Below, piece after piece: positions 7,649 to 39,452 of a stretch of DNA of 40,078 nt. The notes below the pieces were generated by a model that worked only from the letters and a program-made list of their open reading frames with translations, ran no database searches and was not told where the DNA came from. The stretch is from a virus: positions 1 through 40,078 of the IMG/VR virus record IMGVR_UViG_3300034069_000373, one strand, 5' to 3'. The position numbers and the translations under genes were made by a program. The first letter of the stretch is position 1, and the number at the start of each line of letters is the position of its first letter.

Positions 7649-7654
7649 AGGCGC

Positions 7655-8942: not shown

Positions 8943-9601
8943 ATGAGCACGCATCGACAGCCAGCGCACAAAATCGCCGTCGAGCTATTTACTCTTCAAA
9001 GGTGTGCGCCTTCTGCGGGGAGTGTTTTAGCCCTGCTACCTCAAAGCCGAAAACGTGCAGTTGGCAATGCCGTTTTTTGTTGCTGCAGAGAGACTTTGAA
9101 GGGAAAGAAGGATGCTGGGAATGGCCTCAAAGCAGAAACATAGTCACCGGCTACGGGCAGTTTCATGCAGAAGAGGGCGGGAAGCGAAATCAAACGGCTC
9201 ACCGCTTGTCGTTTCTGTTGAACAAAGGCGGCATCCCAGACGACCGGCTAGTCATGCATTCTTGCGATAACAGGGGATGTTTTAACCCCGCACACTTGTC
9301 CTTGGGGACCCATCTGGACAACTGTCACGACAAGATCAACAAGGGCCGTCAGAAGGAGCCGAAGCGCAGGAAGTTAGAGGACCATCACAACTCTAAGCTC
9401 ACGCTTGCTGCCATAGCTGAAATCCGTTCCTGCAAAGGCAGGGTGCGAGAGTTTGCCAAGAAGTACGGCGTCAGTACGTCGTGCATCAACGATGCTAGAG
9501 CTGGCGTGTCTTGGTCGACTGCTCCGCAATTCTGCGGACCGCATCTCCCGATCGCTTTGAGCCGGCGCTTGAACCGAGCCAAAACTGAACAACTTGCGTA
9601 A
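8939..9601 (+). CDS. HNH homing endonuclease (HNH_3-type) with N-terminal Cys4 region and C-terminal HTH-like region
   Basis: I chose the ATG at 8939 (MNEHAS...). AHRLSFLLNKGGIPDDRLVMHSCDNRGCFNPAHLSLGTHLDNCHD is a classic HNH_3 motif. By eye the GC content is lower than in the neighbouring genes. Confidence 0.85.
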   Translation: MNEHASTASAQNRRRAIYSSKVCAFCGECFSPATSKPKTCSWQCRFLLLQRDFEGKEGCWEWPQSRNIVTGYGQFHAEEGGKRNQTAHRLSFLLNKGGIPDDRLVMHSCDNRGCFNPAHLSLGTHLDNCHDKINKGRQKEPKRRKLEDHHNSKLTLAAIAEIRSCKGRVREFAKKYGVSTSCINDARAGVSWSTAPQFCGPHLPIALSRRLNRAKTEQLA

Positions 9602-10073
9602 AGCTGACAGTCAAAGCGCCAAACAGCACGTTTAGCAGGTTGGCCGTTCTTTCGTCCCAATCGCGATTGATGACAAACAGCAGATAGACCGCGACGAAGA
9701 ATCCAACGATTACAAGCGCCGAAATGATCGGAGCAGCCCACGCTATGTTGCTGTTTTCTTTCGTGAGGTCGACAGTCTGCTGACGAGCGTTCTGCGTATC
9801 CGTGAGGAATGCCCCCTCTCTAGCTGCATCGACTTTTGCCATCTCAAGCTCTAGAGCCTGTTCGGCAGCACGCAGGGCTAATATCTGGTCACCATTGAGC
9901 GATCCCGTTGATAGAGCCTGCTCCACCTCCTCCGCAGACGCATCAGGACGGCCCAGAACCTTATCGGCGATGACCTTGACGGCTACACCGGCCATCGGCC
10001 CTCCAAGCGCTGCAGCGAGCCCGGGGGCCACACTGCCAATCAGCGAACGCCAGTCGAAATCTTCGAGTGCCAT
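9495..10073 (-). CDS. 3-TM holin-like protein (GTA_holin_3TM / DUF3154-like)
   Basis: The following elements match my recollection of that family: DFDWRSLIGSVAPGLAAALGGPMAG..., ...LALRAAEQALELEMAKVD.., ...DTQNAR, C-terminal TM segments, and FWLGSSAGSKRSGD. It is the last gene of the lysis cluster. Confidence 0.6.
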   Translation of the reverse strand: MALEDFDWRSLIGSVAPGLAAALGGPMAGVAVKVIADKVLGRPDASAEEVEQALSTGSLNGDQILALRAAEQALELEMAKVDAAREGAFLTDTQNARQQTVDLTKENSNIAWAAPIISALVIVGFFVAVYLLFVINRDWDERTANLLNVLFGALTVSFTQVVQFWLGSSAGSKRSGDAVRRIAEQSTKTRQL

Positions 10074-10074
10074 A

Positions 10075-10572
10075 TCAAGCCTTCTGAATGAATGCCAGTG
10101 CTTGGCGGTAGAGCGGGCTCCATGTGTCCGGCTTGGGCTTTCCTGGGCGCCATGTCCTCAGATACAGTGCATAGGCTGCCGTATCGTCGCCCAACTCGGG
10201 GAGGCGCTGCGGGTCGGTCCACAGCAGCAGTCGTGCAGCCGCAGCCGCTGCTACGTCATCCGTCTCGATGGCGTTCCACAGAGCGGTGGCGTTGAAGGCG
10301 ATACCGCGTGCTTCGCAGACCTTGCGCATGTGGGGCTTGGACAGTTCGTGCGAGACGACGCCCTTACAGCCGCCGCCTCGCTCAAATTGCCAGAAACCAC
10401 GAGCTGGTCCTTTGGCTGATGTGTTGTTGAGCAGCTGATAGCGGTTCTCGAATCGGCTTTCCTGAAGACCGATTGCCAGCATGACGACCCGCGCACGTGG
10501 TGAGTCCATCAGTTCGGGGAGGAGCTTGAATGCAGGATTCAGGCCAACGCGCGTGATCTGGTCAAGAGTCAT
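10075..10572 (-). CDS. Endolysin, lytic-transglycosylase/lysozyme-like (165 aa)
   Basis: The ATG at 10572 (MTLDQITRVG...) has an ATGA overlap with the upstream stop. AIGLQESRFENRYQ...ARGFWQFERGGG resembles SLT-like muramidase motifs with a catalytic Glu in QES. It is flanked by membrane proteins. Confidence 0.65.
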   Translation of the reverse strand: MTLDQITRVGLNPAFKLLPELMDSPRARVVMLAIGLQESRFENRYQLLNNTSAKGPARGFWQFERGGGCKGVVSHELSKPHMRKVCEARGIAFNATALWNAIETDDVAAAAAARLLLWTDPQRLPELGDDTAAYALYLRTWRPGKPKPDTWSPLYRQALAFIQKA

Positions 10573-10934
10573 CGGGATAGCTCCATGGGAGGCTCTTCCA
10601 TCGCATTGGCGGGAGGTGTGTCGATGACGCCGTGTCTTGTCTTCACAGGACGCCATGCGTGCGAGCTGGAGAAGAAGATGGCGAGGATAGTGATTTCCAG
10701 CATGAGGCTCGCCCAGCCGACATTCTCGCCCCACCAAGGCCGTGCCATGGAGACGAACCCGGTGGTCATGCACAGCACGTATTCCAGCCGGACCCTGAGC
10801 AAGACATGCTCGTCCATTGCATTCAAACGGCACACACAGATCCCCATGATCGCAATACACAGCGCAGCGTTGAGCAGCAGCACGATCGGCTGGTTGGTGT
10901 CCAGGTGCTCAAGAAGGTCGAGGAATTCAATCAT
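10569..10934 (-). CDS. Membrane protein (121 aa, about 3 TM), holin/antiholin candidate
   Basis: Hydrophobic segments: IVLLLNAALCIAIMGICV, YVLCMTTGFVSMA and WASLMLEITILAIFF. It lies between the holin-like gene and the endolysin. Confidence 0.55.
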   Translation of the reverse strand: MIEFLDLLEHLDTNQPIVLLLNAALCIAIMGICVCRLNAMDEHVLLRVRLEYVLCMTTGFVSMARPWWGENVGWASLMLEITILAIFFSSSHAWRPVKTRHGVIDTPPANAMEEPPMELSR

Positions 10935-11323
10935 TGCGCGCCTCCGGCACGGAATGTGTCGATCACCCGAAGAATCCCCTTGGAAATGCTAGAAAGCAAT
11001 ATGCCAAAGTCTATAAACCCAATCAGCAGAGCGATCGGAGCAAGTAAGAATCGCTCGGAGAAGGTCGGATACTGAGACGAGATCCACCCGGAGATGCCTA
11101 CGGTGAGGAGTGTTGCCATTCCCATAGCTCGAAGGAAGTACCACGTCGCGCTCCACCGATCTGATGGAGGGCGCCTTGCAAGGGCGAAGGATGCCCCGAT
11201 GACTCCAGCCACCGCGAACAGGACGTAGGGGCCGACCACGACAGCAACTTCAGGGGAAAAGATCGAGGCGGCTATAACGACCGATAGGCCAATGGAGTCT
11301 GTGACGCTGGGGCTGCTGTTCAT
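10931..11323 (-). CDS. Membrane protein (130 aa, 3-4 TM), holin candidate
   Basis: Multiple TM segments: GLSVVIAASIF, VVVGPYVLFAVAGVIGASFAL, AMGMATLLTVGISGWI and LLAPIALLIGFIDFGILL. It is the first gene of the lysis cluster, after the tail fibre gene. Confidence 0.55.
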   Translation of the reverse strand: MNSSPSVTDSIGLSVVIAASIFSPEVAVVVGPYVLFAVAGVIGASFALARRPPSDRWSATWYFLRAMGMATLLTVGISGWISSQYPTFSERFLLAPIALLIGFIDFGILLSSISKGILRVIDTFRAGGAQ

Positions 11324-18506: not shown

Positions 18507-19090
18507 GTGCGCACGTCCACAACAAGATGAATTCGCTCGACAGCAGAGTGGTTTACGACGCTATGCTCTGGCCGCTTGTCTTCAGGGGCTCCCTTGCCGT
18601 TGTTGAACCAATAGATTTCTCCGGGTGCCATGTAGACCTGCTCGTCACCAGCAGTGAACACCACACCAGGGGCGCTCTGCAGAACGATGTGATGACGCTC
18701 CCAATAGTTGGCGTGGTCTAGCGTGTCAGCATGCGGGTAGATGCGCCCGCCCGGCATGATGCGATTTACGATGACGCGCCCCAACCGAGTTCCTCGGACG
18801 TTCGCCATCAGTGCCATTACCAAATCACGGGCTTCGGGCAGTTTGTCGTAAACAGGCAGATCAATGCATTCGTGCTGGTCAACCGTGCGCAATAGTTCCT
18901 CGCGCTCCTCCTCAGTGGCTGGCACAGCGCGCGGCGGGAATCTCAGAATAATTGAATCAGTCTCGCCAAAAGGACCTTGCGGGAATGTCCGCAAATATGT
19001 GTCCTCGTGCCACCATCCCGGATTGCGGGCGATCTTTGCCATCAACGGGGTCACGTTGACGTTGGTAGCGAGGCGAAAGAAATTCTTCAT
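18503..19090 (-). CDS. Aspartyl/asparaginyl beta-hydroxylase-family 2OG-Fe(II) oxygenase (195 aa)
   Basis: PGGRIYPHADTLDH...WERHHIVLQS..GVVFTAGDEQVYMAPGEIYWFNN...EHSVVNHSAVERIHLVVD matches the Asp/Asn hydroxylase cupin pattern (I.PH.D ... R.H..L ... G....F.N...H.V.N.S...R.HL..D). Confidence 0.75.
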   Translation of the reverse strand: MKNFFRLATNVNVTPLMAKIARNPGWWHEDTYLRTFPQGPFGETDSIILRFPPRAVPATEEEREELLRTVDQHECIDLPVYDKLPEARDLVMALMANVRGTRLGRVIVNRIMPGGRIYPHADTLDHANYWERHHIVLQSAPGVVFTAGDEQVYMAPGEIYWFNNGKGAPEDKRPEHSVVNHSAVERIHLVVDVRT

Positions 19091-19446
19091 CGAGGAATGA
19101 CGGTTATCGACGGTGCCGCCGAGTATGTCACCCTGACCGCATCGCCCGGATTGAGCCTCACCACACCGCTATTCGGCAGGGCGTAGAAGGAAGTGCCATC
19201 TCGGGAGAAGTCCACATCGGAAACCGTGCCGCCCGAAACAATCAGATCCTGATCGAAATCGGTCTTATTTTCCCACGTATAGGGGGAAGCGGATAGAGTG
19301 GCTTCGGTAATTGCAGTCGTCGGGTTGCGGCCCAGCCCCTGCAGGTATTGCTGCAGCCACAAAGACATCTTGGCGACGAGCCCGCCGCCCTCGCTGACGA
19401 CATCAGCGATCTTCTGCCCGATACGTGGGACGCCTTGAGCCTTCAT
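19087..19446 (-). CDS. Hypothetical virion-module protein (119 aa)
   Basis: The ORF is in the track. It is coupled to both neighbours and lies directly downstream of the tail hub gene. Confidence 0.6.
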   Translation of the reverse strand: MKAQGVPRIGQKIADVVSEGGGLVAKMSLWLQQYLQGLGRNPTTAITEATLSASPYTWENKTDFDQDLIVSGGTVSDVDFSRDGTSFYALPNSGVVRLNPGDAVRVTYSAAPSITVIPR

Positions 19447-20852
19447 CCCTTGACCTCCAGCGTGGCGCCGATGATCACCTTCTTCACTGGGGCGTCAACG
19501 GCGATCTCGTAGATACGGTTTCGAGCCGCACCTAGACGGTTGAACACGATTCGCTTCTCGTACTCTCCGAGTTTACCCATGGGTCGCGTCACTTCGTTAT
19601 TGAAGACGCGGCCATCATCGGACCAGCGAAGCGAGATCAGAGGATCGGAGCCATAGCCTGCCGGCAAACCAACGCCCGCTTCCATCAGCACTTCTAGGCG
19701 CGAGTGGAATAGCCGAGCACCGCCCTTCCAAATATAGGGGGAGGCGCGCACAGAGCGGATGGGGTCGCCCGCGTTGTCGTACACGTCGAATTCCATCGCG
19801 TAGAGTCGACCGTCGCGATAGTCGCCGACCAGCAGTGAGCCGTAAGCAGAAGCGAAGCAGTTCAGCCGGTACCTCTTGAACTCTGCTGCCTCCCATTCCA
19901 GCCACTCAAACCATGAATTGGAGTGTGCGTCATAGCACCATGTCTTCTGTTCACTGGGGAAAGTCAACATGTAGATGGGGTGCCGACGAATGTCGAGACC
20001 GGTACCGAACGCGTCATCGACCTTGGCATATCCAGCAATCGCAGACTCTATCGCCACCGTGCTGATGCGCTGGGGCGTCTGGCCCTGCATGCGGTAGATA
20101 GCTAAAGCGCCTTGCGGGTTGTTGCCCAGCCAGAAGACGGAATCATCAGCGATGGCCGCAGAGTAGGGCGCAGAGCAACCGACCTCGTAGAACGCGCCGT
20201 CGACACGCTGGAAGGGGAACGCCGCAGCTCCTGAGTTGTACCAAAGCTCCAGCGAAGAGGTTCCGAAGACGTGCAGCAGTCGGTGATTGCTAACCACCGT
20301 CGAGAGGTTGTCCGGCAGTCCTTCGGCAGAGGCAAAATCGATCGCGTCCCATGTGAGAAAGTCGTACTGCCCGGAGATGCCGAATTGTCCAGTGTTAGGT
20401 AGGCCGACAATGCCGTAGCTGTCTTGGTAGGTTGCTTGGGTCGCGCCATAGACAAAGCCTGAATCGGTGATCTGCGTCCAAGCCGATGTTTCAATAGTGA
20501 AGACGAACCCCGACAGGCCGTCAATCACCAGCACTTGAAGGCCGTTGTCTTGCAGGGTGACGCGTCCAAGCCCGCTGAAGTTGCCCAGTGTCGTGAATGT
20601 CCAATCCGGATTGATGCGCCCGAACGACTGGCCGACAGCAGCGTACAGCACGCCGTTGACCTCGATCAGCCCCTTCACAGGACCACCCGCCAGGTTAGCA
20701 AGCAGCTTCAGCCCGGGCACGCCGTAGAGCGCTGTGGGCGTCTTCGCTTGGGTGTCGTCGCGCTCCAGCAGGAAGTTGATGCACCGTTGGTTGTTCACCG
20801 ACAGCGATGGCGCTTCGTATGCCGGCCCGACAAATCCCGCAATGAGGTTCAT
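19443..20852 (-). CDS. P22 gp10-like tail hub / packaged-DNA stabilisation protein (469 aa)
   Basis: Its size is close to P22 gp10 (472 aa). The N-terminus (MNLIAGFVGPAYEAPSLSVNNQRCINF..E) and the repetitive beta-propeller-like sequence are typical of the Phage_stabilise family. Confidence 0.7.
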   Translation of the reverse strand: MNLIAGFVGPAYEAPSLSVNNQRCINFLLERDDTQAKTPTALYGVPGLKLLANLAGGPVKGLIEVNGVLYAAVGQSFGRINPDWTFTTLGNFSGLGRVTLQDNGLQVLVIDGLSGFVFTIETSAWTQITDSGFVYGATQATYQDSYGIVGLPNTGQFGISGQYDFLTWDAIDFASAEGLPDNLSTVVSNHRLLHVFGTSSLELWYNSGAAAFPFQRVDGAFYEVGCSAPYSAAIADDSVFWLGNNPQGALAIYRMQGQTPQRISTVAIESAIAGYAKVDDAFGTGLDIRRHPIYMLTFPSEQKTWCYDAHSNSWFEWLEWEAAEFKRYRLNCFASAYGSLLVGDYRDGRLYAMEFDVYDNAGDPIRSVRASPYIWKGGARLFHSRLEVLMEAGVGLPAGYGSDPLISLRWSDDGRVFNNEVTRPMGKLGEYEKRIVFNRLGAARNRIYEIAVDAPVKKVIIGATLEVKG

Positions 20853-20858: not shown

Positions 20859-22625
20859 TTAAGAGTTGACCATTTCCGCCGAGACGGCCGAGATTTGCGC
20901 GGTCGTGTGGGCGCCGGTGTAAATGCGGATCTCGTGAATCCATCCGTTCAGCGCTTCATTGCTACCGTCCGGCTTGGTAGCACCGACCGTGATCGGCGCA
21001 AAGCTACGATTCTTGCCGACTAGCGCGGTCGTGCCAGATTGGACACTGTTGGCATTCAGCGCCATTGAGATGCCCTTGTCCAAACGACGATAGCTCAGGG
21101 TGTTCCACTGACTCAGCGGAGGTGTCCCGATCGTTGCTTGTGAGAAGGTGCCCTCACGAATCGAGTTGGCTTCCACCCCGCCGTTTGGCTTGAAGTTGAA
21201 TTGCACCGATCGCGCCAGCGCAGTCGCTTCTGCATTGATGATCATCGTGGCGTAGGCGGTGGCTGCGGTGTCCAGCTGGATGTTCACGTAAATCGTGCAG
21301 ATTTCCGGCATCTCGGTGCGCGCCGTGGACAGTGCCATCGCGCCAGTAAATGAAAGCGCCTTCTTGCCGTTCTTCGCTGTCGCCATCAGAGGCTGTGCGG
21401 CTCCCGTAGCCTGAGTCAGCACGTTGCGCCCCCTGCGGTCCGGCCACATCGAGACTGCTACGCCATTCGCCTGCGACAAGTCGTTGGCGTTCCACCACGA
21501 GTAAAGATTCACTGAGTCGGTGACGCCCGCGATATACGGCCCTTTGAAGTTCGGCTCAACTGGCGGCACATAGCTAGCGGGTTGCTGCGCAGGGATCAGG
21601 ATGTTGTCCATCGCCATAGCGATTGACTGATACGACATGGCGGGCACAACGTAGCTATGCCGGCCGTTGCTCGCACCAACGCTATTCGCACCGGTCGAGG
21701 CATCGACTGAGACGGAACAAGGAACGCTCGCGAACCCCGCTGCCTCCGGAGAGCCCGCAACTGCGATGAAAGCAGTGACAGGATCGAAGGCAGATCGGCC
21801 GTTTGCCTTGTTCGAAGCCGTGAACGCAGCCGACAACGGCTCGCTTGCACCAGCGATCGATGTCAGGTTCGAGCCGACTACTAGAGAGTCGCCGATCTCG
21901 CTACCGACAAAGACGATCGGCCCGGGGCAGTTCGCGCATACGTAGCTCGCTGCCGTGCGGGTCTGCGCAGAGTAAATGAAGTTGAATTCGCTACCGGTCG
22001 GATACTGACCGCCCATGACCCACAGCTTCGTCACCTTGGCGGTGTAGAGCTGCATGCCAGTGAGTGGGCTGATGTCGTCGGCGGGGCTCTGCAGCAGATC
22101 CGAAAGATTCTGCATGAAGCCCACGGTGAGGATTTCTGTGGTGCCCTGCAAGTTGGCGAGCAGTGTCCGCATGACCGTCAACGAATCTTGGAGGCCGGCA
22201 TTTGTGTACAGCCGGCGAGTGCCGATGCCAGTCAATGCGGAGTTGTAGAAAACGTCTGTGCCCGTGCTGCCGCCACCCGAAGTGTTGCGAGGTCCAAAGG
22301 CGATGGGGACTGCGGGGACGCCGTCAAATGCCATCAACGCATCTTGGGCCTGCGGCGTGGTGGTGTACTGCGTCGAGTTTGCGACACCGAGCAGGTTGAT
22401 GATGCGTTTCTTATGTGCCCAATCAAGCACGCGCAAACATGCCACGTCGTCAACGTCAACGAACCAATCAGTGTCGAAGATGAAGTTCCGTGGAGGGACG
22501 GCGTTGACAATGGCAGTCGGCGTCAATGAAACAACCTGACCGCCTTGCACGCCCACAATTCGCGCGGTAGCAGCAGGGCTCGCAGCCGCAGCCGCAGCCT
22601 GAACGAGAACGTCGATATCAGCCAT
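20859..22625 (-). CDS. Tail-module protein (588 aa): Ala-rich N-terminus, nucleoside-hydrolase (IUNH)-like domain and C-terminal LamG/concanavalin-like domain
   Basis: Three elements parallel the IUNH landmarks (DxDxxxDD; GPLTN; MGG...EFN..DP.AA). They are FIFDTDWFVDVDDVACLRVL, ...EILTVGFMQNLSDLL... and ...LWVMGGQYPTGSEFNFIYSAQTRTAASYV. The C-terminal roughly 200 aa ends in NGWIHEIRIYTGAHTTAQISAV, which is typical of LamG jelly-roll ends. Confidence 0.6.
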   Translation of the reverse strand: MADIDVLVQAAAAAASPAATARIVGVQGGQVVSLTPTAIVNAVPPRNFIFDTDWFVDVDDVACLRVLDWAHKKRIINLLGVANSTQYTTTPQAQDALMAFDGVPAVPIAFGPRNTSGGGSTGTDVFYNSALTGIGTRRLYTNAGLQDSLTVMRTLLANLQGTTEILTVGFMQNLSDLLQSPADDISPLTGMQLYTAKVTKLWVMGGQYPTGSEFNFIYSAQTRTAASYVCANCPGPIVFVGSEIGDSLVVGSNLTSIAGASEPLSAAFTASNKANGRSAFDPVTAFIAVAGSPEAAGFASVPCSVSVDASTGANSVGASNGRHSYVVPAMSYQSIAMAMDNILIPAQQPASYVPPVEPNFKGPYIAGVTDSVNLYSWWNANDLSQANGVAVSMWPDRRGRNVLTQATGAAQPLMATAKNGKKALSFTGAMALSTARTEMPEICTIYVNIQLDTAATAYATMIINAEATALARSVQFNFKPNGGVEANSIREGTFSQATIGTPPLSQWNTLSYRRLDKGISMALNANSVQSGTTALVGKNRSFAPITVGATKPDGSNEALNGWIHEIRIYTGAHTTAQISAVSAEMVNS

Positions 22626-22628: not shown

Positions 22629-22796
22629 TCATCCTGCCTTAAGTTGGTTGCCGGAGCCCGCTACCAGGGGGTTTCCCGAGCCTGCGACTATAGAGTTGCC
22701 TGTGGGTTGAGGCGGTGTAATGTTGCCCATGCTGCCGTCACTCAAGCCGCGCATGAGCGGCCTGAGCAAGGGAACGAGTAGTTCTCGGAGCAACAT
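22629..22796 (-). CDS. Small hypothetical protein (55 aa: MLLRELLVPLLRPLMRGLSDGSMGNITPPQPTGNSIVAGSGNPLVAGSGNQLKAG)
   Basis: Hand translation (below the track cutoff). It has a TGATG overlap with the upstream stop. It ends 3 nt before the next ATG, whose RBS (aaggcagga) lies inside it. It fills a 170-bp gap. Confidence 0.45.
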   Translation of the reverse strand: MLLRELLVPLLRPLMRGLSDGSMGNITPPQPTGNSIVAGSGNPLVAGSGNQLKAG

Positions 22797-23053
22797 CAGT
22801 CGCGATCCACGCCGGTAGCGTTCTGGCTTGGCCCCTTGGTCACTCGGAACGTGCCGGTCGCACTGAGAACGCGCGCAGGGTTGCCGTCTGTCAATTCGCC
22901 AATGGTCACGTAGTTGGTGCCAATCAGCTTCTGCACTTGGGCCGAGCCGAAGGGGCGCAGCGGCCCCGACAGACTCAGCGTAGTGGAAGCCGATGCCAAA
23001 GTGAAATCAGTGGAGCTTGCCGCCCCCTGTGTTTCGTTGATGATCAGCGCCAT
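22796..23053 (-). CDS. Hypothetical small virion-module protein (85 aa)
   Basis: The ORF is in the track. The ATG is preceded by aaggaaagaaa. Confidence 0.6.
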   Translation of the reverse strand: MALIINETQGAASSTDFTLASASTTLSLSGPLRPFGSAQVQKLIGTNYVTIGELTDGNPARVLSATGTFRVTKGPSQNATGVDRD

Positions 23054-23062: not shown

Positions 23063-26000
23063 TTAGTTGACGTTCTGGCCGCCCATGTCGAAAGGTCGAC
23101 CTGGGGTAGCGCGGAAGCCGCCGTATTCAAACGGGAGGCCGTTGAGCAGTCGGCAACCGCCCTTGCCGCCATTCTGGCCGTTGTCGTTTGCGCAGCCTAC
23201 GCCGTCATTGGCAAACGAGTGCGTGTGCATGTTGATCCCTTCGCCGTACAGGAAGTTATGCACGCCACGACCGCCGTAGTCAGCGATGCCGAGCACATAG
23301 GACTCCGTGCCGTGGTTCGGTGCGTCGAAGATCGAGATCGGGTCGATGAGCTTCTGGTCTTGCAGCGTCTTCGTGACCGCAGCAGAGGTCCAAGCGGAAT
23401 TGAACTTCACCCACTGGATCTTTCGATCTCCACGCGAGTTAAGAATCATGTAGCGCTGAAACTTGACGCCATCAGCGTAGCTTTCACCCGAATAGGTGCT
23501 GGTGTCGTACTTTTCAAACCAGCCATGGCCGGCAGGCTGCACTACATCGGTGACGTTGCGGCCAACATCGATGGACATCAATTCGCTGATGTCATTCGGG
23601 TTGCCCGGGGCCGTTGCGCTGGGGCTGGCGTAAACCGTGCCCAGCGTGAAGAGGTGCATTTTGCCGTCTTGCGTTGTGACCACCGAACGCACGCCGTCTG
23701 CCTGATCCCGGAAGTTCGGCATTTGTCCTGCAGTCGGGGCGCTCGTCATCGTCACAACCTTGGCAATGGTTGGCTTTTGACTTGGCGTGTTGGCAAAGGT
23801 GTACGGCCACTGATTGGCAGCTGGGCCACGGTTGGCGATCATCGAGACAAAACCCGATTGCGACTGGCCGAAGTACTGCTGGCGGTAGTAGGCAAACAAG
23901 GGTTGCAGATCAATGAATGCAACCGTCTTCTCGCTTTTGCTCCACACGGTAGCGACACCCGATTTCGCAATTGAGGCACTGCGGTAGTTGCCGTGCTGGA
24001 TCTGGTCAGCGCTTGCACCGGCAGGGCCGAAGTAGCTACGACGCTCGTACTCGTCCGTCTCTAGGTTCGCGCCCCACGGGTCCGACTTCTCATAGTCGTC
24101 AGGGTTGACGCCCGTCGACGAGACGATGCCGGTAGGCGCCTTCATGTTCGACGGCAGATCGACGTAGCCGAGCAGCTTGGCGTAGATGTAGTTCGACTTG
24201 CCAGGAAGGCCAGCAAACACCTTCGGCCAGTTGTTCCAGTTGCGATACCAAGTCGATTCATCGTTGGGGTTGCAGCCTTGGCAGCCTTCGGCCAGCGCGA
24301 TCACTGCCACCTTGCCGGTGGTCGTGGCCGTGTCCCAGACCGTCACCAGCGCGAATTCACCGCTGTTAGTGATCGAGATAGCGGTGGGCACCTTGGTGGT
24401 GTCGCCTTGGAGGAAGTTGTACTTCAGGAAGTTGTGATTCGTGTTGCCACCGTGGCCGGTGATATCTCCGTTCTTCCAGACCGTGAGAGTGTTTGTGCAC
24501 CACCCGCCGTGACCCGTGCAGACCACCGAAGCGATCGGCTTGTAGTCGGGCGTGACTTGTGCAGCCCATGCCGGACGACCACCCTTGGCACCGACATAAC
24601 GGTCCATGTTGAAGTCGTTGTCGGCACCGTTTTGGCCGAAGCCTTCCGAGGTCGTCCAGTTGACTTGAGGCAGGACGCCTTCAGAACCGTAGTCGACGGT
24701 CAACATCAGGTAGTTGGCAATACCGTAGTACGGCTTCTTGTGGAAGCGGTCGTCTGGATCGGCGTCCGGAAGGTACGCGATCTGAGCATCCGAAGACGAG
24801 TAGTCCAGCGAATCAGCCTTGATCGGGCCGAAGGACATGAACGAGCAACCGTTCTGGTTGTTCGGGCCTGCTGTTCCCGTGCAGTTCGGCAGACGCCCGC
24901 CAGCGTTCGGGCCTGCGTCACCTAGCTTGCCGATGATCGGACGTGCAGCGTAATTGGAAAATCCGTTGTTGCCAGTCGTGCCGTAGTAGGCCGAGGAAGG
25001 GCCGAACCGGTATTCAATACCTGCATCGGTGCCAAAGGTGTTTGCTACCGTCGTGTACTTCGCAGAGTCGACGACACCGTTCGTCATGATTGACGCATCA
25101 AGCGGGCCTTGCGTGTTGAGCGTGCGAGGCTTGCCGTTCTTGATGGCGAGACAGATGCGCCCACTAGAGCCAACGCCGGTCGTTCCGAAACGAGCCGTGT
25201 TGCAGGTGTAAGTGCCAATGGGAAAGTAAACTTTCTTGTACTGCCCCTGAGCGCCGAAGGCAACCCAAGTCGGTTCCGCAAGAGAGAACGAGCCCCCTTC
25301 GTCAGAAACCTTTTGGTTGTTGCCCGCCTCGATGTAGCGGCATGCTTTCTGCACACCGACCTCAGGATCAGGGAACTGGCCGTCACGGCAATCCACGTCG
25401 CCGGCCGGATAGTCGCGATCGATCCACGGACCGTTGCCGTCACCGTACAGAACCTTAGTGGGCGTCGTAACCGTAGCAATGCCACGGAAGGCGAACAAGT
25501 TCGTCTCAACGGGGATCGGCGAAGACGGAGCGGACGGATTGTCGTAAGGAACGACGATGGTCTGCGCAGTGCCCGTGCCAGGATTGGTCGTGCCCGGATC
25601 GACGGGGGTAGTGCTTCCCGTGCCGCTGCCATTGTTCGGGATGTAGCAGCCGCCGTTTTTACCGTTGGACGGGTCGCCAAACACTGCAGTGGTACACGAA
25701 TAGGTGCCGGCAGCAAGTACGAGTTGGTTGTAGAAACCTACACCACCGAAGACCACCGTTTTCTGCGAGTCAAGCGTGAAGTTCGCGCCGACCTCTGCAA
25801 TCTTGGTTTCTGGCAGCGAGGAGATAGACGTGCAGAACTTCGTGCCTGGGCCTGGAGCTGCATCGCCGAGGATCTGATAGATGCACTGCTTGCTGTCGGA
25901 ATCGGTGATGTACTTGTCGGTACGTGCAGTGGAGGTGCCGAACGACACCAGCCGTGCGCCGTTCAGGACATAGGTCTGAGTTTCGTTCGCCAGGAAATAA

Positions 26001-26374
26001 CTGGTCCAAGCCGTTGCCGTCGGCGTGCTCGGGGCTGGGGTGTTGGGGTTCGTCCCCGTGCCTGCGTTCGAGCCGAAGACTGGGGCACCTGAATCTACGC
26101 CGCCGTTGGCCAGCGTCAATTTGCACTGCTTGCGCACCACGCCACTGACCGGCGTAGAGCCGAACAGGATAGGGTGACAGGGGTAGGTGCCAGCCGGCAG
26201 CGTCATGCGGTTCCAGACCGTTCCAATGCCATAGCTGACCGTGGAGGTAGCCGTCAGCTTAAAGCTGGTGGAAGCGGCGTTGGCTTCGTCTGCGAGCTTT
26301 CGCCCTGCAGGATTGGCCGCTAGGGCCGATGTGCTCACCGCGACCAGCGCGGCAATGTAGAGTAACTTTTTCAT
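23063..26374 (-). CDS. Large signal-peptide-bearing protein (1103 aa) with five tandem 2-Cys repeats of about 55 aa and a C-terminal region of about 650 aa; function unknown
   Basis: I chose the ATG at 26374 (MKKLLYIAALVAVSTSALA|ANPAG), which is preceded by caggaaccca 18 nt after the upstream stop. The tracked ORF upstream of it is Arg/His-rich junk. The repeats follow the pattern ..V.FG..G.Y......AGTY.C....FG(D)P..G....C. Confidence 0.8.
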   Translation of the reverse strand: MKKLLYIAALVAVSTSALAANPAGRKLADEANAASTSFKLTATSTVSYGIGTVWNRMTLPAGTYPCHPILFGSTPVSGVVRKQCKLTLANGGVDSGAPVFGSNAGTGTNPNTPAPSTPTATAWTSYFLANETQTYVLNGARLVSFGTSTARTDKYITDSDSKQCIYQILGDAAPGPGTKFCTSISSLPETKIAEVGANFTLDSQKTVVFGGVGFYNQLVLAAGTYSCTTAVFGDPSNGKNGGCYIPNNGSGTGSTTPVDPGTTNPGTGTAQTIVVPYDNPSAPSSPIPVETNLFAFRGIATVTTPTKVLYGDGNGPWIDRDYPAGDVDCRDGQFPDPEVGVQKACRYIEAGNNQKVSDEGGSFSLAEPTWVAFGAQGQYKKVYFPIGTYTCNTARFGTTGVGSSGRICLAIKNGKPRTLNTQGPLDASIMTNGVVDSAKYTTVANTFGTDAGIEYRFGPSSAYYGTTGNNGFSNYAARPIIGKLGDAGPNAGGRLPNCTGTAGPNNQNGCSFMSFGPIKADSLDYSSSDAQIAYLPDADPDDRFHKKPYYGIANYLMLTVDYGSEGVLPQVNWTTSEGFGQNGADNDFNMDRYVGAKGGRPAWAAQVTPDYKPIASVVCTGHGGWCTNTLTVWKNGDITGHGGNTNHNFLKYNFLQGDTTKVPTAISITNSGEFALVTVWDTATTTGKVAVIALAEGCQGCNPNDESTWYRNWNNWPKVFAGLPGKSNYIYAKLLGYVDLPSNMKAPTGIVSSTGVNPDDYEKSDPWGANLETDEYERRSYFGPAGASADQIQHGNYRSASIAKSGVATVWSKSEKTVAFIDLQPLFAYYRQQYFGQSQSGFVSMIANRGPAANQWPYTFANTPSQKPTIAKVVTMTSAPTAGQMPNFRDQADGVRSVVTTQDGKMHLFTLGTVYASPSATAPGNPNDISELMSIDVGRNVTDVVQPAGHGWFEKYDTSTYSGESYADGVKFQRYMILNSRGDRKIQWVKFNSAWTSAAVTKTLQDQKLIDPISIFDAPNHGTESYVLGIADYGGRGVHNFLYGEGINMHTHSFANDGVGCANDNGQNGGKGGCRLLNGLPFEYGGFRATPGRPFDMGGQNVN

Positions 26375-26391
26375 TGGGTTCCTGCTGGTGA

Positions 26392-28665
26392 TTAGGTGAG
26401 AGCGGGGGGCGTGGTCGGGACGGTATAGGTGGTACCGGAATAGAGAGCCGCACGGGCGCCGCGTGCGAAGCCGACTGTTCCCCGGAAGATGGAATCGACG
26501 CCTTGGTCGCCTTGGCGATAGATGCCCCACGGGCAGTAGAAGCCTTGAATGGTCCCGACAAACGCTGCAGTCGTCGTAGCGACTAGGTTGCCCTGCATGC
26601 GCACCGTGAACGTGCCGTTGGTCTCTCGCTGGAGCACAACGTGATAGCAGGTCTGACCGTTCTGCGTGATTGGATCGATTGCCGGCGTGGTGATCGTCTC
26701 GGTGATGCCCAACGCCTTGAAATAGCAATTGAACGTACGCTTGCCCGTAGATCCTGGATCGTTGGCAAAGATCCGAATAAAGGTGTTGTCAGAGTCAAGA
26801 CCGGTCTCAGCGAACGACAGAACCGTTCCATCACCACTTCCGTTAGCCATCGGGATACGGGCATGGTTCTCGAGAGTCATCGCCCCCGTGACGGTGTACG
26901 AAACGTCAGAGACGATCGCGATGCGGTTACCTTCGGACGAGTCGGTATAACAGCCTAGAACGCCCACATAAGGACCGAAAGGGTCTCCCTTGCCGCCGAC
27001 AACCTGCCCTGTACCCCAGTTATGGTAGATCGCGCCGTTCGTGGCCTTGTTCTGCACTCCTGATTGCCGCTGGTTATCCTGGAAATCAGAGAAATCCAGA
27101 TAGGCAAACGTCGTGCTTGCAGGAGTCGGCGAAGGTGCAGGAGACGGGCTAGGCGAAGGACTCGGAGAGGGCGCAGGAGCCGGCGGCGCAGGTGTTGGAG
27201 TCGTTGAGCTAGAGCCCCAGTCAATCACCGTATTCGTGCTCAACTGGACGAGTGAATTCGTCGTCAGGGTTCCGCTCGACAGCGACACAAAGTTAAGCGT
27301 CTGCGTCTGAGCATTGCGGCGCGGCACGTATACCTTACGGCCTGTCGCATTGATGTCAGTACCTGCGTAGGTGCTGGTGCCAGTTGCCGTGACGGACGAC
27401 GCAGCAGGGCGGAAGATAGAGGCACGGAACCACGTATTGAAGTCGACATATACCTTGGGCGTGAAGTCGTGGCCCGCCGAGGTGATGCCGTAGGTGATGT
27501 TCGTCGCCGTGCCTGTCTCAGGATGATCCGCAGGGTAGGCCGTCGCCGACGAGATCAGCATTGTCCCCAGCTCATCGCCGCTAGCCTCGGCAAATAGCGG
27601 ATCGATCATGTCGCCGCTGTAGCAGAACACCAAAGCATTGCTGCGGTGCGCCTTGAAGCCGCAGAAGTTGGGACGGATCGCGCCAGCGAGGAACGTCACG
27701 CCGAACCGCACTGAATCCAACTCGATGCCGGAGAAGTCGGGCTCGATCGCCAGATCAGTGAAGACGAAGACCGAGCCTCTGACGGGGCCTAATTCATCGT
27801 TGGCAACGTCGGGATACGACAGGTCTGGATCTGGCGCATCACCATCATTGATGACCTGATGCGTCATGTTGCCCGTATAGATGCGGCAACGCTTGTTGAC
27901 GAACTTGGTGAACTCCGCGCCGCAGTAGACCGCGCGGTTGATGTTGAGCCAGCGGCCCTCGGCATCGGACGGCAGGAGATTGGTGTTTCCCGAGTAGATC
28001 GCCGCCTGAAGCTCTGCCCAGTCGCGCTGATCATCTAGGCTGGTAACGAACGGGAAGCGCAATTGCGCAGCCTCCAGCGTTTCAAAGTCGTTGGACAACG
28101 GCCAATCTTGGACCGTGTTGACGTTGTTGCCGTAAGAATTACCGTCTTGGTCGTATCGCTGTTCGCTATAGTCAATGGAGCTGGGCGAACGCTTGAGATA
28201 GCGCAGCAGAGGCACGGGCTGGCCGTTCTCGCCTGCACCGCTGGGCACGGTCATCTGCGAGGCAGAGGCAACCGGCTCACCACTGGGGGCGGGCGTGACT
28301 ATGACTGTCCCACCGTCCGAGGTGTATGTGGGCAGCGGGTGGAACTGTTTGTCTGCACCCCAGTAGTAATCCGCTCGATTGTTCGGGCTGGCAATCGCCG
28401 GCTCTTTAGCGGCCAGAGCTTGAACAAGCAGCGGGCTATCTAGCGGACTACCGGGCAGGTTCGACCAGTTGTAGGTGGGTATGACCACCGGACCACTACC
28501 GTTGCCAGGGTCTTGGATGACGATGACGCCACCAATGTAGGCCTTGATCTGGGCGAGCTGGACCGATCCAGTCTTCTGGCCGTACTGAAGCGGCAAATAC
28601 TCATTGCCCGTCAGGCTCGGGAAGACCGGCAACTGATCGATACGCTTCGGACCCAAACTGTTCAT
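26392..28665 (-). CDS. Tailspike / tail fibre protein (757 aa) with Pro/Ser/Ala linker and C-terminal lectin-like domain
   Basis: The N-terminus RIDQLPVFPSLTGNEYLPLQYGQKTGSVQLAQIKAYI is a common tail-fibre/tailspike anchor motif. An internal linker PTPAPPAPAPSPSPSPSPSPAPSPTPAS is followed by a domain of about 235 aa. Confidence 0.7.
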   Translation of the reverse strand: MNSLGPKRIDQLPVFPSLTGNEYLPLQYGQKTGSVQLAQIKAYIGGVIVIQDPGNGSGPVVIPTYNWSNLPGSPLDSPLLVQALAAKEPAIASPNNRADYYWGADKQFHPLPTYTSDGGTVIVTPAPSGEPVASASQMTVPSGAGENGQPVPLLRYLKRSPSSIDYSEQRYDQDGNSYGNNVNTVQDWPLSNDFETLEAAQLRFPFVTSLDDQRDWAELQAAIYSGNTNLLPSDAEGRWLNINRAVYCGAEFTKFVNKRCRIYTGNMTHQVINDGDAPDPDLSYPDVANDELGPVRGSVFVFTDLAIEPDFSGIELDSVRFGVTFLAGAIRPNFCGFKAHRSNALVFCYSGDMIDPLFAEASGDELGTMLISSATAYPADHPETGTATNITYGITSAGHDFTPKVYVDFNTWFRASIFRPAASSVTATGTSTYAGTDINATGRKVYVPRRNAQTQTLNFVSLSSGTLTTNSLVQLSTNTVIDWGSSSTTPTPAPPAPAPSPSPSPSPSPAPSPTPASTTFAYLDFSDFQDNQRQSGVQNKATNGAIYHNWGTGQVVGGKGDPFGPYVGVLGCYTDSSEGNRIAIVSDVSYTVTGAMTLENHARIPMANGSGDGTVLSFAETGLDSDNTFIRIFANDPGSTGKRTFNCYFKALGITETITTPAIDPITQNGQTCYHVVLQRETNGTFTVRMQGNLVATTTAAFVGTIQGFYCPWGIYRQGDQGVDSIFRGTVGFARGARAALYSGTTYTVPTTPPALT

Positions 28666-29411
28666 GGCGTGTAGACGAGGAATTCGCCGTCCGTATTGAT
28701 GATGGCGTGGCCTCCTGCGCGTCCGCCTGTAATGCCCACCCCGCCATGAGCCGGGATGCCTGCGGGCATGTCGAGCACCGGAACCTGCATGTTCATGCGC
28801 TTAATCACGCGCTTGGCATTGGTCGCACCGCGCAAGATGTCCGGCGTCGCCTGAAGGCCGTACTCAGGCGCCAGCTCTGCAGCGAGGCAATAGGCAAACA
28901 TGCGGTCGTAACCGTCAGGCAGCGAGATAGGATCGTTCAGCAGGAACGTGCCAAGCCGACCGGAGTAATTCAGCTGCAGCGTCACGGCTTGGGCAGGCAC
29001 GGGGTACAGGAAGATTTGCGTGTCAGGCATCGAGTTGTCGACATAGATCGCGCTCGGGATGCCCGCCGTGAGATCCTTTTGATAGATCGCGTTGTAGTCT
29101 GCGTCATTCAGCACCTCCAGCGGGTAGCTGAAACCCGACGACAGCACATAGGACGTGCTCAGCACGCGCACAGGTCTAGCAGTGACATTGAGGCCAGTGG
29201 GGCCGATCGTGGTCGATGCTTGGCCTTTGGAAAATGCGATCTGCAACGATGTGCTGGAGAACACCAGCAGGCTTTCCAAGCCCAACGACTGAACTAGCGA
29301 ATTGAAGACAGACAGCGCGTCCGATGCTTCAGCACCCGTAGGCACTTCGCCGCTGGCCGTGACACCAAGCATACGGAGCGCACGGGCGATGATCGTTTGA
29401 GCAGTCGTCAT
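28662..29411 (-). CDS. Virion structural protein, putative portal-tail adaptor (249 aa)
   Basis: The N-terminus MTTAQTIIARALRMLGVTASGEVPTGAEASDALSVFNSLVQSL matches the II.ALR.LGV...GE.....DAL..LN pattern seen in podovirus adaptor/tail tubular proteins. The assignment is by recollection only. Confidence 0.45.
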   Translation of the reverse strand: MTTAQTIIARALRMLGVTASGEVPTGAEASDALSVFNSLVQSLGLESLLVFSSTSLQIAFSKGQASTTIGPTGLNVTARPVRVLSTSYVLSSGFSYPLEVLNDADYNAIYQKDLTAGIPSAIYVDNSMPDTQIFLYPVPAQAVTLQLNYSGRLGTFLLNDPISLPDGYDRMFAYCLAAELAPEYGLQATPDILRGATNAKRVIKRMNMQVPVLDMPAGIPAHGGVGITGGRAGGHAIINTDGEFLVYTP

Positions 29412-36421: not shown

Positions 36422-36662
36422 TCACAGTGAATGCATGCTCGCCGTTCTCTCCAGGCCCTTGGATGGTCATCGGCAGAACCTTGCCAATCAGCGAGAGGAA
36501 CGCACCAGCGGTCTTAGGATCGTTCGCACGCTCAACGAGGTACTCCACCCCTCCGGATTGATCCAGAGCGCCTAGGATCATCTCCTTAAGCTGCGCAGTG
36601 GCCTTGTTCGGAGAACCCTTGGGACGACCTTTATTTACCGCTTGTTTAATTGGACTGGTCAT
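36390..36662 (-). CDS. terS: Terminase small subunit (90 aa)
   Basis: MTSPIKQAVNKGRPKGSPNKATAQLKEMILGAL...GGVEYL is a typical N-terminal HTH-like small terminase of P22/BPP-1-like podophages. It lies immediately upstream of and overlaps terL. Confidence 0.7.
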   Translation of the reverse strand: MTSPIKQAVNKGRPKGSPNKATAQLKEMILGALDQSGGVEYLVERANDPKTAGAFLSLIGKVLPMTIQGPGENGEHAFTVIERRIVKAND

Positions 36663-36707
36663 GACTTAACGCCTCACATGGCGACACCGGGTAACGCCGG
36701 TTCGATT

Positions 36708-36744: not shown

Positions 36745-36773
36745 CAATGGGTCACAAGGAGGATTGCATCCTA

Positions 36774-37210: not shown

Positions 37211-37212
37211 GT

Positions 37213-37977: not shown

Positions 37978-37993
37978 AGTTATCTCCTGTGAA

Positions 37994-39447: not shown

Positions 39448-39452
39448 TCATC

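Follow-up and report, generated by a model that had tools for sequence, protein, structure and literature searches.

To our knowledge, the known phage depolymerases are made without signal peptides and owe any free form solely to excess production or alternative starts. The Shiga toxin genes of lambdoid phages are late-expressed and encode Sec-exported cargo that is set free by lysis. The n-bladed β-propeller ranks second in frequency among the folds of predicted phage depolymerase domains, and propellers account for 18% of the depolymerase domains predicted in Klebsiella prophages (PMC12491483). Depolymerase can diffuse out of plaques as free enzyme and in this form is recognised to cause plaque halos, and some lytic-cycle enzymes, including Lys44 of Oenococcus phage fOg44 and the SAR endolysins, carry signal peptides and accumulate outside the cytoplasm before lysis (PMC6116005).

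Here we describe a phage gene whose predicted product joins a Sec-type signal peptide to a β-propeller. It lies in a viral genome of 40,078 nucleotides (IMG/VR record IMGVR_UViG_3300034069_000373), hereafter called the window. Judging from sequence and predicted fold, the 1103-aa protein probably acts as a free enzyme that binds or degrades sugar coats. Its main domain belongs to an undescribed family that is secreted by the likely host bacteria and mounted on the tail fibres of other phages.

Results

The 1103-aa ORF is a genuine late-operon gene. It is complete (1103 codons plus stop) and occupies positions 23063..26374 of the minus strand; an earlier note on this DNA had rightly taken it as the largest ORF of the window, ahead of those of 832, 786 and 757 aa, without giving its strand. 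The ATG start (26374-26372) stands 5 nt downstream of an AGGA ribosome-binding site (26380..26383, minus strand) that is the same in the relative L009. A gap of 17 nt separates the start from the TAA stop (26394-26392) of the upstream 757-aa ORF, and the downstream gap is 9 nt. We rejected a longer form starting at a TTG (26728), which would mean a 337-nt overlap with the 757-aa gene. The gene takes up 3.3 kb, or 8% of the 40-kb genome, and its GC content (0.57–0.60) is similar to that of its neighbours. Promoter- and terminator-like sites did not exceed shuffle expectation, and none brackets the gene. As it neither brings along its own promoter or terminator nor deviates in composition, it does not qualify as a classical moron, which leaves the earlier suggestion of a moron-type effector unsupported. 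PADLOC models of anti-phage defence gave 0 matches to the 1103-aa protein or its neighbours, and a scan of 20 ORFs turned up no integrase. The window has early genes of lambdoid type. A JGI contig of 40,078 bp encodes a protein identical to the 1103-aa one (P0001).

The gene forms part of a four-gene insertion, defined relative to Rhodoferax phage P26218, between the genes for a head-tail adaptor of the P22 gp4 type (Ad3; 28662..29411) and a head closure protein of the P22 gp10 type (Hc3; 19443..20852), all of these features being on the minus strand. This slot is a more exact address than the tail hub region named before. Upstream of the 1103-aa ORF, the 757-aa ORF (26392..28665, minus strand) probably encodes a tail fibre or spike, with an anchor-like N-terminal segment, a Pro/Ser linker near residues 490–525 and a C-terminal domain that is ConA/LamG-like by eye and has no Pfam match. 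Its previous label of tailspike was not confirmed: PHROG gave only weak tail matches, and GenBank phages and the PDB gave none. An 85-aa ORF (22796..23053, minus strand) begins 10 nt past the stop codon of the 1103-aa ORF, and further downstream a 588-aa ORF (20859..22625, minus strand), probably a second fibre, has a C-terminal Laminin_G_3 (ConA-like lectin) domain. The lysis region (9495..11323, minus strand) encodes a 130-aa holin-like protein, an SLT-like endolysin and a 192-aa membrane protein.

The 1103-aa protein begins with a predicted Sec-type signal peptide (residues 1–19, MKKLLYIAALVAVSTSALA; 26318..26374, minus strand), followed by ANPAG. It comprises an MKK n-region of charge +2, an h-region (LLYIAALVAVSTS) and A-L-A at -3 to -1, after which SPase I is predicted to cut ahead of a further Ala. 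This conforms to the Sec/SPase I pattern of a charged n-region, a hydrophobic h-region of 10–16 residues and AxA. The 10-residue hydropathy maximum is 2.84, from residue 4, and among the 26 main ORFs this one alone pairs a positive n-region with an h-region of that kind. A lipobox for SPase II is absent (the first Cys is residue 66), as is the Tat twin-arginine motif (S/T-R-R-x-F-L-K). Over codons 1–250, comparison with the 85%-identical relative L009 yields 51 synonymous differences and 1 non-synonymous, and over the signal codons 1–19 alone 2 and 0; the signal codons are thus translated in this frame and under constraint.

Signal character is conserved while the signal sequence drifts. The closest homologues (65%, 56% and 41% identity) and four phage copies have different but equally signal-like N-termini, and in P0002, P0003, P0004, L010, L011 and L012 the variable signal leads into a conserved mature start, PAG-x-KLADE. 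The same character is kept in P0010-12, P0031 and the Variovorax copies. Many more distant relatives have lipoprotein signals (L-x-x-C-GGGG), with a lipobox in P0014, P0017 and L038-41, for example, and a crude heuristic assigns a signal-peptide or lipoprotein-type N-terminus to 88 of the 152 family representatives. The Sec signal peptide proposed in the earlier note therefore stands: the three classic regions (n, h and c) are present, no other main ORF of the window has the like, and the closest homologues retain signal character. At the same end of the 1103-aa protein we found no virion-anchor or virion-attachment segment, module r1 starting ~10 residues past the predicted cut, and there was no tail-family match (0 in PHROG). 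We conclude that the protein is very probably exported from the cytoplasm and not built into the tail.

Five two-Cys modules follow the signal, all encoded on the minus strand. Three of them fit the motif given in the earlier note well: r1 (residues 33–90, Cys 66/84; 26105..26278), r3 (192–249, Cys 227/243; 25628..25801), which is also the nearest to the family consensus, and r5 (355–414, Cys 391/408; 25133..25312). The other two, r2 (122–187, Cys 164/181; 25814..26011) and r4 (287–351, Cys 329/345; 25322..25516), are degenerate, with pairwise identities to other copies of 15–18% and 15–29%. The modules go beyond chance, as an HMM built from these five alone finds 1–6 copies in more than 20 other proteins (per-copy E 1e-7 to 1e-16). 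The claim of five repeats of ~55 aa is therefore sound as to number, and the shared motif holds for three. AlphaFold2 models r3 (residues 190–252) as a small β-module with pLDDT 84.

The note had also read the Cys pairs as a sign of a periplasmic or extracellular protein. In keeping with this, the pair is retained in 37 of 43 module copies, and Pro/Thr-rich linkers, which often separate carbohydrate-binding modules of secreted enzymes, follow r1 and r3. Yet some fibre-type proteins that lack a signal peptide contain the module too, and six copies in one lipoprotein are devoid of the Cys, so the pair alone is no proof of periplasmic location. Many Cys residues also occur in the fibre-type relatives, whose assembly is cytoplasmic. 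The module had no significant structural or sequence match. It shares F-G-D-P-x-x-G-x-x-K next to a Cys with the SUEL/L-rhamnose-binding lectins (Gal_Lectin), from which it differs in length (~55 aa against ~95 aa for the lectin domain) and in having no Pfam match. Against the PDB, the module profile matched the lectin 5h4s best, at E 0.17 for the whole chain and E >100 per stretch, reflecting the motif only, and Foldseek placed a SUEL-type lectin at rank 21 with E 5.8. With no significant profile or fold match, the likeness to SUEL lectins is a resemblance of motif only.

The C-terminal ~690 aa, of which the note could assign ~650 to no family, now prove to be a β-propeller of a large undescribed family. 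AlphaFold2 predicts a propeller with insertions for residues 416–1103 (23066..25129, minus strand; pLDDT 87.7, pTM 0.93), and its best Foldseek fold matches are seven-bladed. Searches of Pfam, PHROG, NCBIfam and PDB sequences gave no match to this region; at E up to 1, Pfam yielded only DUF5013 (E 0.022), below its cut-off. Both 6-phosphogluconolactonase-type and WD40 propellers match its fold, the former with target-normalised TM-scores of 0.6–0.67 at 8–11% identity. The best PDB matches with superposition over most of the target chain were the seven-bladed "lactonase" propellers 6nau (K. pneumoniae), 1ri6 (E. coli YbhE/Pgl) and 6igb (P. aeruginosa PpgL, a periplasmic gluconolactonase), at E ~1e-7 and target-normalised TM 0.62–0.67. 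WD40 propellers score about equally, so the lactonase match shows fold class only; the query is also twice as long, has large insertions and gives no Pfam Lactonase match. No polysaccharide lyase or glycoside hydrolase was among the top 50 Foldseek PDB matches, and Pfam, NCBIfam and PDB sequence searches found no homology to a characterised family of either kind. Twelve polar residues (E673, W680, D681, K733, S812, E815, D822, N940, R981, D1006, D1011 and D1032) are nearly or fully invariant in 108 sequences that share 24–69% identity, mostly ~25–40%, with the query. Conservation of this kind is more in keeping with a catalytic or metal-binding site than with a binding face, which would be variable.

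An exhaustive search extended the propeller family to 369 cluster representatives, many of them secreted proteins or lipoproteins. The nearest relatives include exported proteins and lipoproteins on the chromosomes of Variovorax and other Comamonadaceae, with several paralogues per Variovorax genome. Some of the Variovorax chromosomal copies are tandem paralogues. The chromosomal flanks of family copies contained no genes of these phages; in L024 they are housekeeping genes (CysS, a PurD-like gene and a histidine kinase). Fold and domain company are typical of carbohydrate-active enzymes, an indirect sign of such a function: among 57 homologues scanned, the accessory domains include GDSL/SGNH esterase (5), RicinB (3), PA14 (2), CBM6 and CBM35, along with collagen, the Gp80 podophage fibre domain and the Ig-like domain of tip attachment protein J. 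In a rough neighbour-joining tree without support values, phage signal-peptide copies interleave with Variovorax chromosomal ones, and fibre-type copies form separate deep clades.

Phages carry the propeller in two forms. In some, it is the distal end of tail fibres without a signal peptide, in places behind SGNH esterase domains, and the N-termini of these fibre-type relatives are of coiled-coil, collagen or Gp80 type. In at least 6 phage contigs, the signal-peptide version occupies late-gene positions. Four of these genes (in L002, L010, L011 and L012) stand directly beside holin, endolysin or 192-aa lysis-region genes, homologues of the lysis region of the window, and at least one of the four contigs is related to this phage. 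The signal-peptide propeller gene, as its placement across contigs indicates, is not position-bound to tail genes. L009 has the 1103-aa and 757-aa genes as a cassette in a different backbone: nucleotide identity with the window is 85% over a stretch that begins within the 757-aa gene and ends precisely at the stop codon of the 1103-aa gene, beyond which the backbones are unrelated. In L013, a related P22-like phage, the slot between Ad3 and Hc3 holds tail-fibre genes, one with the same propeller and no signal peptide, adjoining a gene with a relationship to the C-terminal end of the 757-aa protein. Both arrangements link the 1103-aa gene to host-surface specificity. The position of the 1103-aa gene, called unexpected before, is less odd in this light. 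A tblastn search with the 1103-aa protein against 50,697 phage records found no match.

Discussion

We give slightly better than even credence to a host-type exported glycan-active enzyme that is made late, exported by Sec and freed at lysis as a depolymerase or receptor-destroying factor, not as a virion part. A phage lineage would have captured the host-type exported version, signal peptide included. Late in infection, the gene would be transcribed together with the tail genes, and the product translocated by Sec, cut after Ala19 and oxidised at its Cys pairs in the periplasm, where the mature ~113-kDa protein would build up until holin and endolysin freed it. In a diderm, Sec alone leads only to the periplasm; exit from the cell is assumed to occur via lysis. 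The modules would bind host surface polysaccharide, and the propeller would bind or cleave it, either after release from the cell or while still in the envelope; the target would be the same kind of structure as the flanking lectin-ended fibres recognise. Such a free enzyme could clear exopolysaccharide for the progeny and prevent them from sticking to debris. The place of the gene between tail-fibre genes and its co-inheritance with one of them count against this reading, as a virion role would also fit. A secreted depolymerase or envelope-remodelling enzyme was the first of the roles listed in the earlier note, and it is the one that we, too, favour.

An exclusion factor would remain with the infected (or lysogenic) cell, in its envelope, and bind or trim nascent polysaccharide or another receptor, so that other phages could not adsorb or eject their DNA. 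The same domain is the fibre tip in other phages and therefore presumably recognises a surface structure, and the conserved export signals, the lipoprotein variants among relatives, the co-inheritance with a fibre gene and the lambdoid early genes of the window would all suit such a role. Early or prophage expression is usual for exclusion genes, whereas this one lies in a late structural operon without its own promoter, in a window with no integrase among the 20 ORFs scanned. The near-invariant polar set, moreover, looks enzymatic and not like a stoichiometric blocker, and the protein has no lipobox. We consider exclusion unlikely, even with the precedent of T5 Llp, a phage lipoprotein reported to block the phage's own receptor (PMC9586334).

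The gene might also be a host-derived passenger, unrelated to adsorption, that benefits the infected or lysogenic cell, for instance by scavenging plant or environmental polysaccharide or in bacterial competition. Auxiliary genes for exported proteins do exist in phages, cyanophage PstS being an example, and the family is expanded on Variovorax chromosomes, where tandem paralogues, housekeeping flanks and the interleaving of phage with chromosomal copies point to a cellular origin. We nonetheless regard a passenger as decidedly unlikely: 8% of the genome is kept under strong purifying selection, the gene travels with a fibre gene across backbones, the contigs with late-positioned signal-peptide versions retain it there, and other phages put the domain on fibres. 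That last point, together with the occurrence of the modules in bona fide fibre-type proteins, the flanking pair of putative lectin-ended fibres between Ad3 and Hc3, the L013 fibre in the same slot and the co-inheritance with the 757-aa gene, could instead speak for a true tail fibre whose hydrophobic N-terminus is unused for export, or which joins particles after export and lysis. The +2 n-region, 16-residue h-region and AxA are hard to square with cytoplasmic assembly, though, and the protein has no N-terminal anchor or coiled-coil as in its fibre-type relatives and no PHROG tail match. With cellular exported proteins and lipoproteins as nearest relatives, and four phages placing the signal-peptide version by lysis genes, a virion fibre seems very improbable.

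As a free glycan enzyme, the 1103-aa protein would resemble the β-propeller phage depolymerases in fold class, in the placement of the family domain at the distal fibre end and in the SGNH esterase and CBM-type domains of its homologues. Unlike the known depolymerases, it has a Sec signal and no virion anchor, and in sequence or close structure it is related to none of the characterised ones. It differs from the exported endolysins in having no peptidoglycan-hydrolase domain, in a window that has its own SLT-like endolysin. T5 Llp and Cor are likewise exported phage proteins, reported to act on the phage's own receptor (PMC9586334), and some relatives of the 1103-aa protein are lipoproteins; Llp, by contrast, is ~60 aa long and early, whereas the 1103-aa protein is of soluble type (no lipobox), late and enzymatic in appearance. 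With the Shiga toxins it shares a signal peptide, a late transcription unit, adjoined by the lysis cassette in L002 and L010-L012, and presumably folding and oxidation in the periplasm and release by phage lysis. The proteins themselves are unrelated, the gene in the window lies among tail genes and not at the lysis cassette, and the presumed target is the bacterial surface instead of a eukaryotic cell.

A large gene in the late region

Translation of both strands places the 1103-aa gene, the largest ORF of the window, on the minus strand only, at 23063-26374; a plus-strand reading of the same coordinates is full of stops and was ruled out. With the ORF, leader and five modules each checked, the earlier note's report of a large signal-peptide-bearing, repeat-carrying gene amid the tail genes is confirmed. 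The ATG at 26374 has an AGGA 5 nt upstream and follows the TAA of the preceding 757-aa ORF by 17 nt. The sole longer start, a TTG at 26728, would give a 337-nt overlap with that gene. An 85-aa ORF begins 10 nt past the stop codon. GC content (0.57-0.60) is the same as that of the neighbours, and a scan against shuffled sequence found no enrichment of promoter- or terminator-like sites and none bracketing the gene. Together with the tight spacing, these observations argue that the gene is integral to the late, leftward transcription unit.

The window, a complete JGI contig of 40,078 bp, belongs to a P22-like podovirus whose coat protein is 57-58% identical to those of Rhodoferax phage P26218 and two spring-water phage contigs, and it is syntenic with P26218 across the portal, scaffold, coat, adaptor (Ad3), head-closure (Hc3), needle and ejection proteins. 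Ad3 and Hc3 adjoin in P26218; in the window, four additional genes (757, 1103, 85 and 588 aa) occupy this slot. The 757-aa (26392-28665, minus strand) and 588-aa (20859-22625, minus strand) products have no match among PDB sequences and are probably this phage's real receptor-binding fibres. The 588-aa protein ends in a Laminin_G_3 domain. The C-terminus of the 757-aa protein (residues 520-746), which also carries a Pro/Ser linker of ~35 residues, looks Laminin_G_3-like by eye without a Pfam match, and is 27-29% identical to a 311-aa ORF (phrog_3545) of L013, a contig that also carries a propeller gene. Residues ~48-65 of the 588-aa protein, IFDTDWFVDVDDVACL, recall the DxDxxxDD motif of inosine-uridine nucleoside hydrolases; with that Pfam family not reported at E up to 0.01, the suspected assignment was set aside as a resemblance.

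Elsewhere in the window, a 261-aa GTG-started ORF (10075-10860, minus strand) has homologues (13325-13840 of phage contig L011; phrog_3108) that start at its Met97 (MTLDQITRVG). The ORF is thus probably over-extended, the predicted true product being an SLT-like endolysin of ~165 aa. Its neighbours are a holin-like protein of 130 aa (10931-11323) and a membrane protein of 192 aa (9495-10073). Lambdoid content marks the early region (1-9600 and 36400-40078), which encodes NinG/Rap, a RecE-like exonuclease, a replication initiator, a DNA methyltransferase, a Lar-like protein and an HNH endonuclease. The window ORFs scanned included no integrase. Between a needle-like 119-aa ORF and the ejection proteins, a 195-aa protein matching the Pfam Asp/Arg (Asn) β-hydroxylase family of 2OG-Fe oxygenases (E 5e-10) is followed by a GNAT acetyltransferase, a pair (18051-19090, minus strand) with no counterpart in P26218. 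A TauD-type 2OG oxygenase also comes after a homologue of the 1103-aa protein (P0004) on contig L003.

A predicted export signal

In the N-terminus, MKKLLYIAALVAVSTSALA followed at the predicted cut by ANPAG, a +2 n-region leads into a strongly hydrophobic h-region, with A-L-A just ahead of the cut; sequence reading finds neither a lipobox nor a twin arginine in it. By simple measures, the combination of a positive n-region and a comparable h-region is absent from the other 25 main ORFs of the window. Among the nearest relatives the leader sequence differs while its hydrophobic kind is kept, and a conserved mature start, PAG-x-KLADE...F-x-L, comes next. This arrangement recurs in the homologues P0002 (65% identity), P0004 (56%) and P0003 (41%), and on phage contigs L010, L011 and L012.

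Codon comparison with the 85% identical copy on contig L009 shows 51 synonymous and 1 non-synonymous differences in the first 250 codons, with 2 synonymous and 0 non-synonymous in codons 1-19. The sole in-frame alternative start ahead of the first module, a GTG at codon 13, has no AGGA-like site upstream that we could see on reading the sequence. We strongly infer that the N-terminus is a Sec export signal, its conservation being the more telling support.

Two-Cys modules

Five modules of 58-66 residues (r1 to r5; residues 33-90, 122-187, 192-249, 287-351 and 355-414) follow the leader, each with one Cys pair spaced 16-18 residues apart; Pro/Thr-rich linkers set apart r1, the pair r2-r3 and the pair r4-r5. 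Modules r1, r3 and r5 are mutually 28-36% identical, and r2 and r4 are degenerate. Searched with an HMM built from these five copies alone, over 20 other proteins yield 1-6 copies each, with per-copy E down to 1e-16, which argues that the repeat is a real domain. Its consensus is K-[LI]-A-x-E-x(3)-F-T-L-x(5)-V-x-Y-G-x(9)-L-x-A-G-T-Y-x-C-x(4)-F-G-D-P-x-P-G-x(2)-K-x-C-Y.

Both Cys are retained in 37 of 43 aligned copies. P0130, a 1025-aa metagenomic lipoprotein, carries six copies in which Ala, Ser or Gly stands in for the first Cys and Ala for the second, so the fold would be independent of the disulfide; these copies precede an Ig-like domain and no propeller, so the module also exists outside the propeller family.

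An AlphaFold2 model of r3 from the 43-copy alignment is a small β-module (pLDDT 84), for which Foldseek against the PDB returned nothing below E = 1. Among PDB sequences, the module profile matches a sea-urchin rhamnose-binding lectin best, over its F-G-D-P-C-x-G-x-x-K motif (E 0.17). Membership of the SUEL-type lectins was considered and rejected, since this motif match is not significant and the structural search gave no support: the common motif is a resemblance, not membership. Searched against 5.8 billion proteins, the profile gave no significant match, the domain being too short for a database of that size.

The C-terminal propeller

The C-terminal ~690 residues (416-1103) gave an AlphaFold2 model with pLDDT 87.7 and pTM 0.93 from a 108-sequence alignment. 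Foldseek matched it to generic propellers only, WD40 proteins among them. The best-superposing matches are seven-bladed and of the 6-phosphogluconolactonase type (target-normalised TM-scores 0.62-0.67, 8-11% identity), and the best in a viral library are uncharacterised 'COG3391 / lactonase-like' proteins of uncultured phages. The propeller profile found only a chance WD40 match among PDB sequences; Pfam, PHROGs, NCBIfam and PADLOC searches of the whole protein returned nothing usable, and tblastn against 50,697 GenBank phages matched neither it nor its 757-aa neighbour. Given the confident model, the generic fold matches and the lack of PDB, Pfam or NCBIfam profile matches, the C-terminus is, as modelled, a seven-bladed-like β-propeller with long insertions, of an undescribed family.

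A word-indexed homologue search returned two relatives only, and the family became visible only by exhaustive phmmer: among 1.84 billion cluster representatives (50% identity) we found 369 propeller relatives, 102 of them at E ≤ 1e-30, sharing a region that spans residues 430/612-1103. In the 108-sequence alignment, whose members are 24-69% identical to the query (mostly 25-40%), R981 and D1011 never vary, and E673, W680, D681, K733, S812, E815, D822, N940, D1006 and D1032 are 89-98% conserved, a pattern that would be expected of a catalytic or metal-binding site. Four extra Cys pairs in the propeller were considered as markers of export class; being lineage-specific and rare in every class, they carry no evidence on localisation.

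Distribution among phages and bacteria

Among 152 listed representatives, N-termini fall into three classes: Sec-type, lipoprotein (of the form L-x-x-C-GGGG) and no signal, the last starting with the coiled-coil-like segments usual in phage fibres. Accessory domains in the 57 members scanned include GDSL/SGNH esterase (5), RicinB (3), PA14 (2), CBM6, CBM35 and Ig-like domains, as well as collagen repeats, the podophage Gp80 fibre domain, Rcc01698_C and the Ig-like domain of tip attachment protein J. In three fibre-type members examined individually (P0036, P0037 and P0043), the N-terminal segment is separated from the propeller by an SGNH esterase, and a two-Cys module is also present in two of the three.

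Phage copies with a signal peptide occupy varied positions. The window copy lies between Ad3 and Hc3, after the 757-aa gene; that of L009 follows a 757-aa homologue. On L002, holin-like genes, a GH19 endolysin and a 168-aa ORF precede the copy; on L010 it is preceded by an endolysin judged GH108-like from its N-terminal sequence and by a homologue of the 192-aa protein of the window lysis region. On L011 the gene has J-like tail-fibre genes on one side and a holin-like ORF and a homologue of the window endolysin on the other; on L012 it lies ~360 nt upstream of a GH108-like endolysin. Copies without a signal peptide are an 873-aa protein of L013, again between Ad3 and Hc3, with the next gene related to the C-terminus of the 757-aa protein; a 1340-aa fibre immediately before the lysis genes of L014; a 1306-aa protein of L015; and one on L004, a contig that carries phage-type genes for replication and nucleotide metabolism together with a GH108 lysin. 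Window positions 27791-23062 match L009 at 85% nucleotide identity and the match ends exactly at the stop codon of the 1103-aa gene, past which L009 carries unrelated virion genes (phrog_2941, phrog_3287), on an unrelated downstream backbone. The 757-aa gene and its neighbour are thus common to two different backbones.

One-genome-per-species data hold 156 matching loci. The best 80 are almost all from Variovorax, a common rhizosphere genus, with Xenophilus, Xylophilus, Janthinobacterium and other Comamonadaceae; several genomes among these (loci L016-L091, Variovorax and relatives) have at least 3-5 paralogues, frequently in tandem pairs. Chromosomal copies with a readable start have signal peptides or lipoboxes, and every named family member is annotated 'hypothetical protein'. 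The idea that the Variovorax copies are prophage genes of these phages was rejected, as no such phage genes occur in 76 flanks. L024, for example, is flanked by CysS, a PurD-like gene and a hybrid histidine kinase, and a recurring neighbour set that includes a MurU-like nucleotidyltransferase (by eye) resembles ordinary synteny. In a rough neighbour-joining tree, phage copies with a signal peptide branch among the chromosomal ones of Variovorax, at no fewer than three separate places, and the fibre-type propellers fall in distant clades.

Two Logan contigs (L007 and L008, 1-10209) hold three tandem propeller paralogues: one cut by the contig end, one of signal-peptide type (886 aa) and one of lipoprotein type (689 aa). 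Downstream lie three DUF285 genes, a gene of 349 aa (329 aa in L008) without a Pfam match, and an R2K ATP-grasp.

Discussion

Read from sequence, these features point to an exported, soluble, carbohydrate-directed protein, made late and released at lysis. The conserved export signal, the lack of an anchor segment, the exported cellular relatives and the free movement of the gene between fibre slot and lysis cassette argue for export; the company of CBMs, SGNH esterases and fibre tips, together with enzyme-like conservation, argues for a carbohydrate target. A virion component, as its neighbours might suggest, is very unlikely, and annotators should be warned that a position in the tail module does not by itself make a product a virion protein. 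The link with a fibre gene, kept across backbones, suggests a specificity of the protein that matches that of the fibres, which fits a putative role as a free depolymerase or receptor-destroying factor. That the gene is instead a passenger seems quite improbable, and a function in superinfection exclusion is unlikely.

Export is our preferred reading, and we predict a Sec-exported accessory glycan enzyme of the phage, built from two undescribed domain families. Late expression would be followed by Sec export, and lysis would set the soluble, putative enzyme free. The core of the earlier note, an exported, Cys-paired, sugar-binding protein, is supported. Its list of roles narrows toward putative free depolymerase activity or receptor destruction.

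Among the depolymerase folds predicted in phages, β-propellers rank second in frequency, with properties described as unclear (PMC12491483). Free depolymerase is accepted as one cause of plaque halos, and some phage lysins are exported through Sec (PMC6116005). If our reading is true, a tailed phage deliberately sends a large glycan-active protein through the host Sec pathway, in contrast to a virion-bound or accidentally free depolymerase, and the exported gene moves together with a fibre gene. To our knowledge, there is no close precedent for a phage Sec-exporting a stand-alone copy of a domain that sister phages mount on their fibres. The work also defines two undescribed domain families, the β-propeller (369 cluster representatives at 50% identity) and the ~55-aa two-Cys module, both found in phage fibres and heavily expanded in Variovorax. 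An enzyme of the predicted kind, naturally soluble and stabilised by disulfides, would be a candidate for work on biofilm and exopolysaccharide degradation.

A bolder proposal, which we hold only tentatively and consider unlikely, is that Comamonadaceae phages use one propeller, which would recognise or cleave the receptor, in two interchangeable modes, fixed to a tail fibre or as a soluble, Sec-exported periplasmic enzyme. In the exported mode it would act within the infected cell to destroy or mask the polysaccharide receptor of the phage itself. The gene would be exchanged as a cassette along with its matching fibre gene, and a host family of secreted enzymes would have been its source more than once. 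Were this so, the exported propeller would be the bacterial-virus counterpart of a receptor-destroying enzyme.
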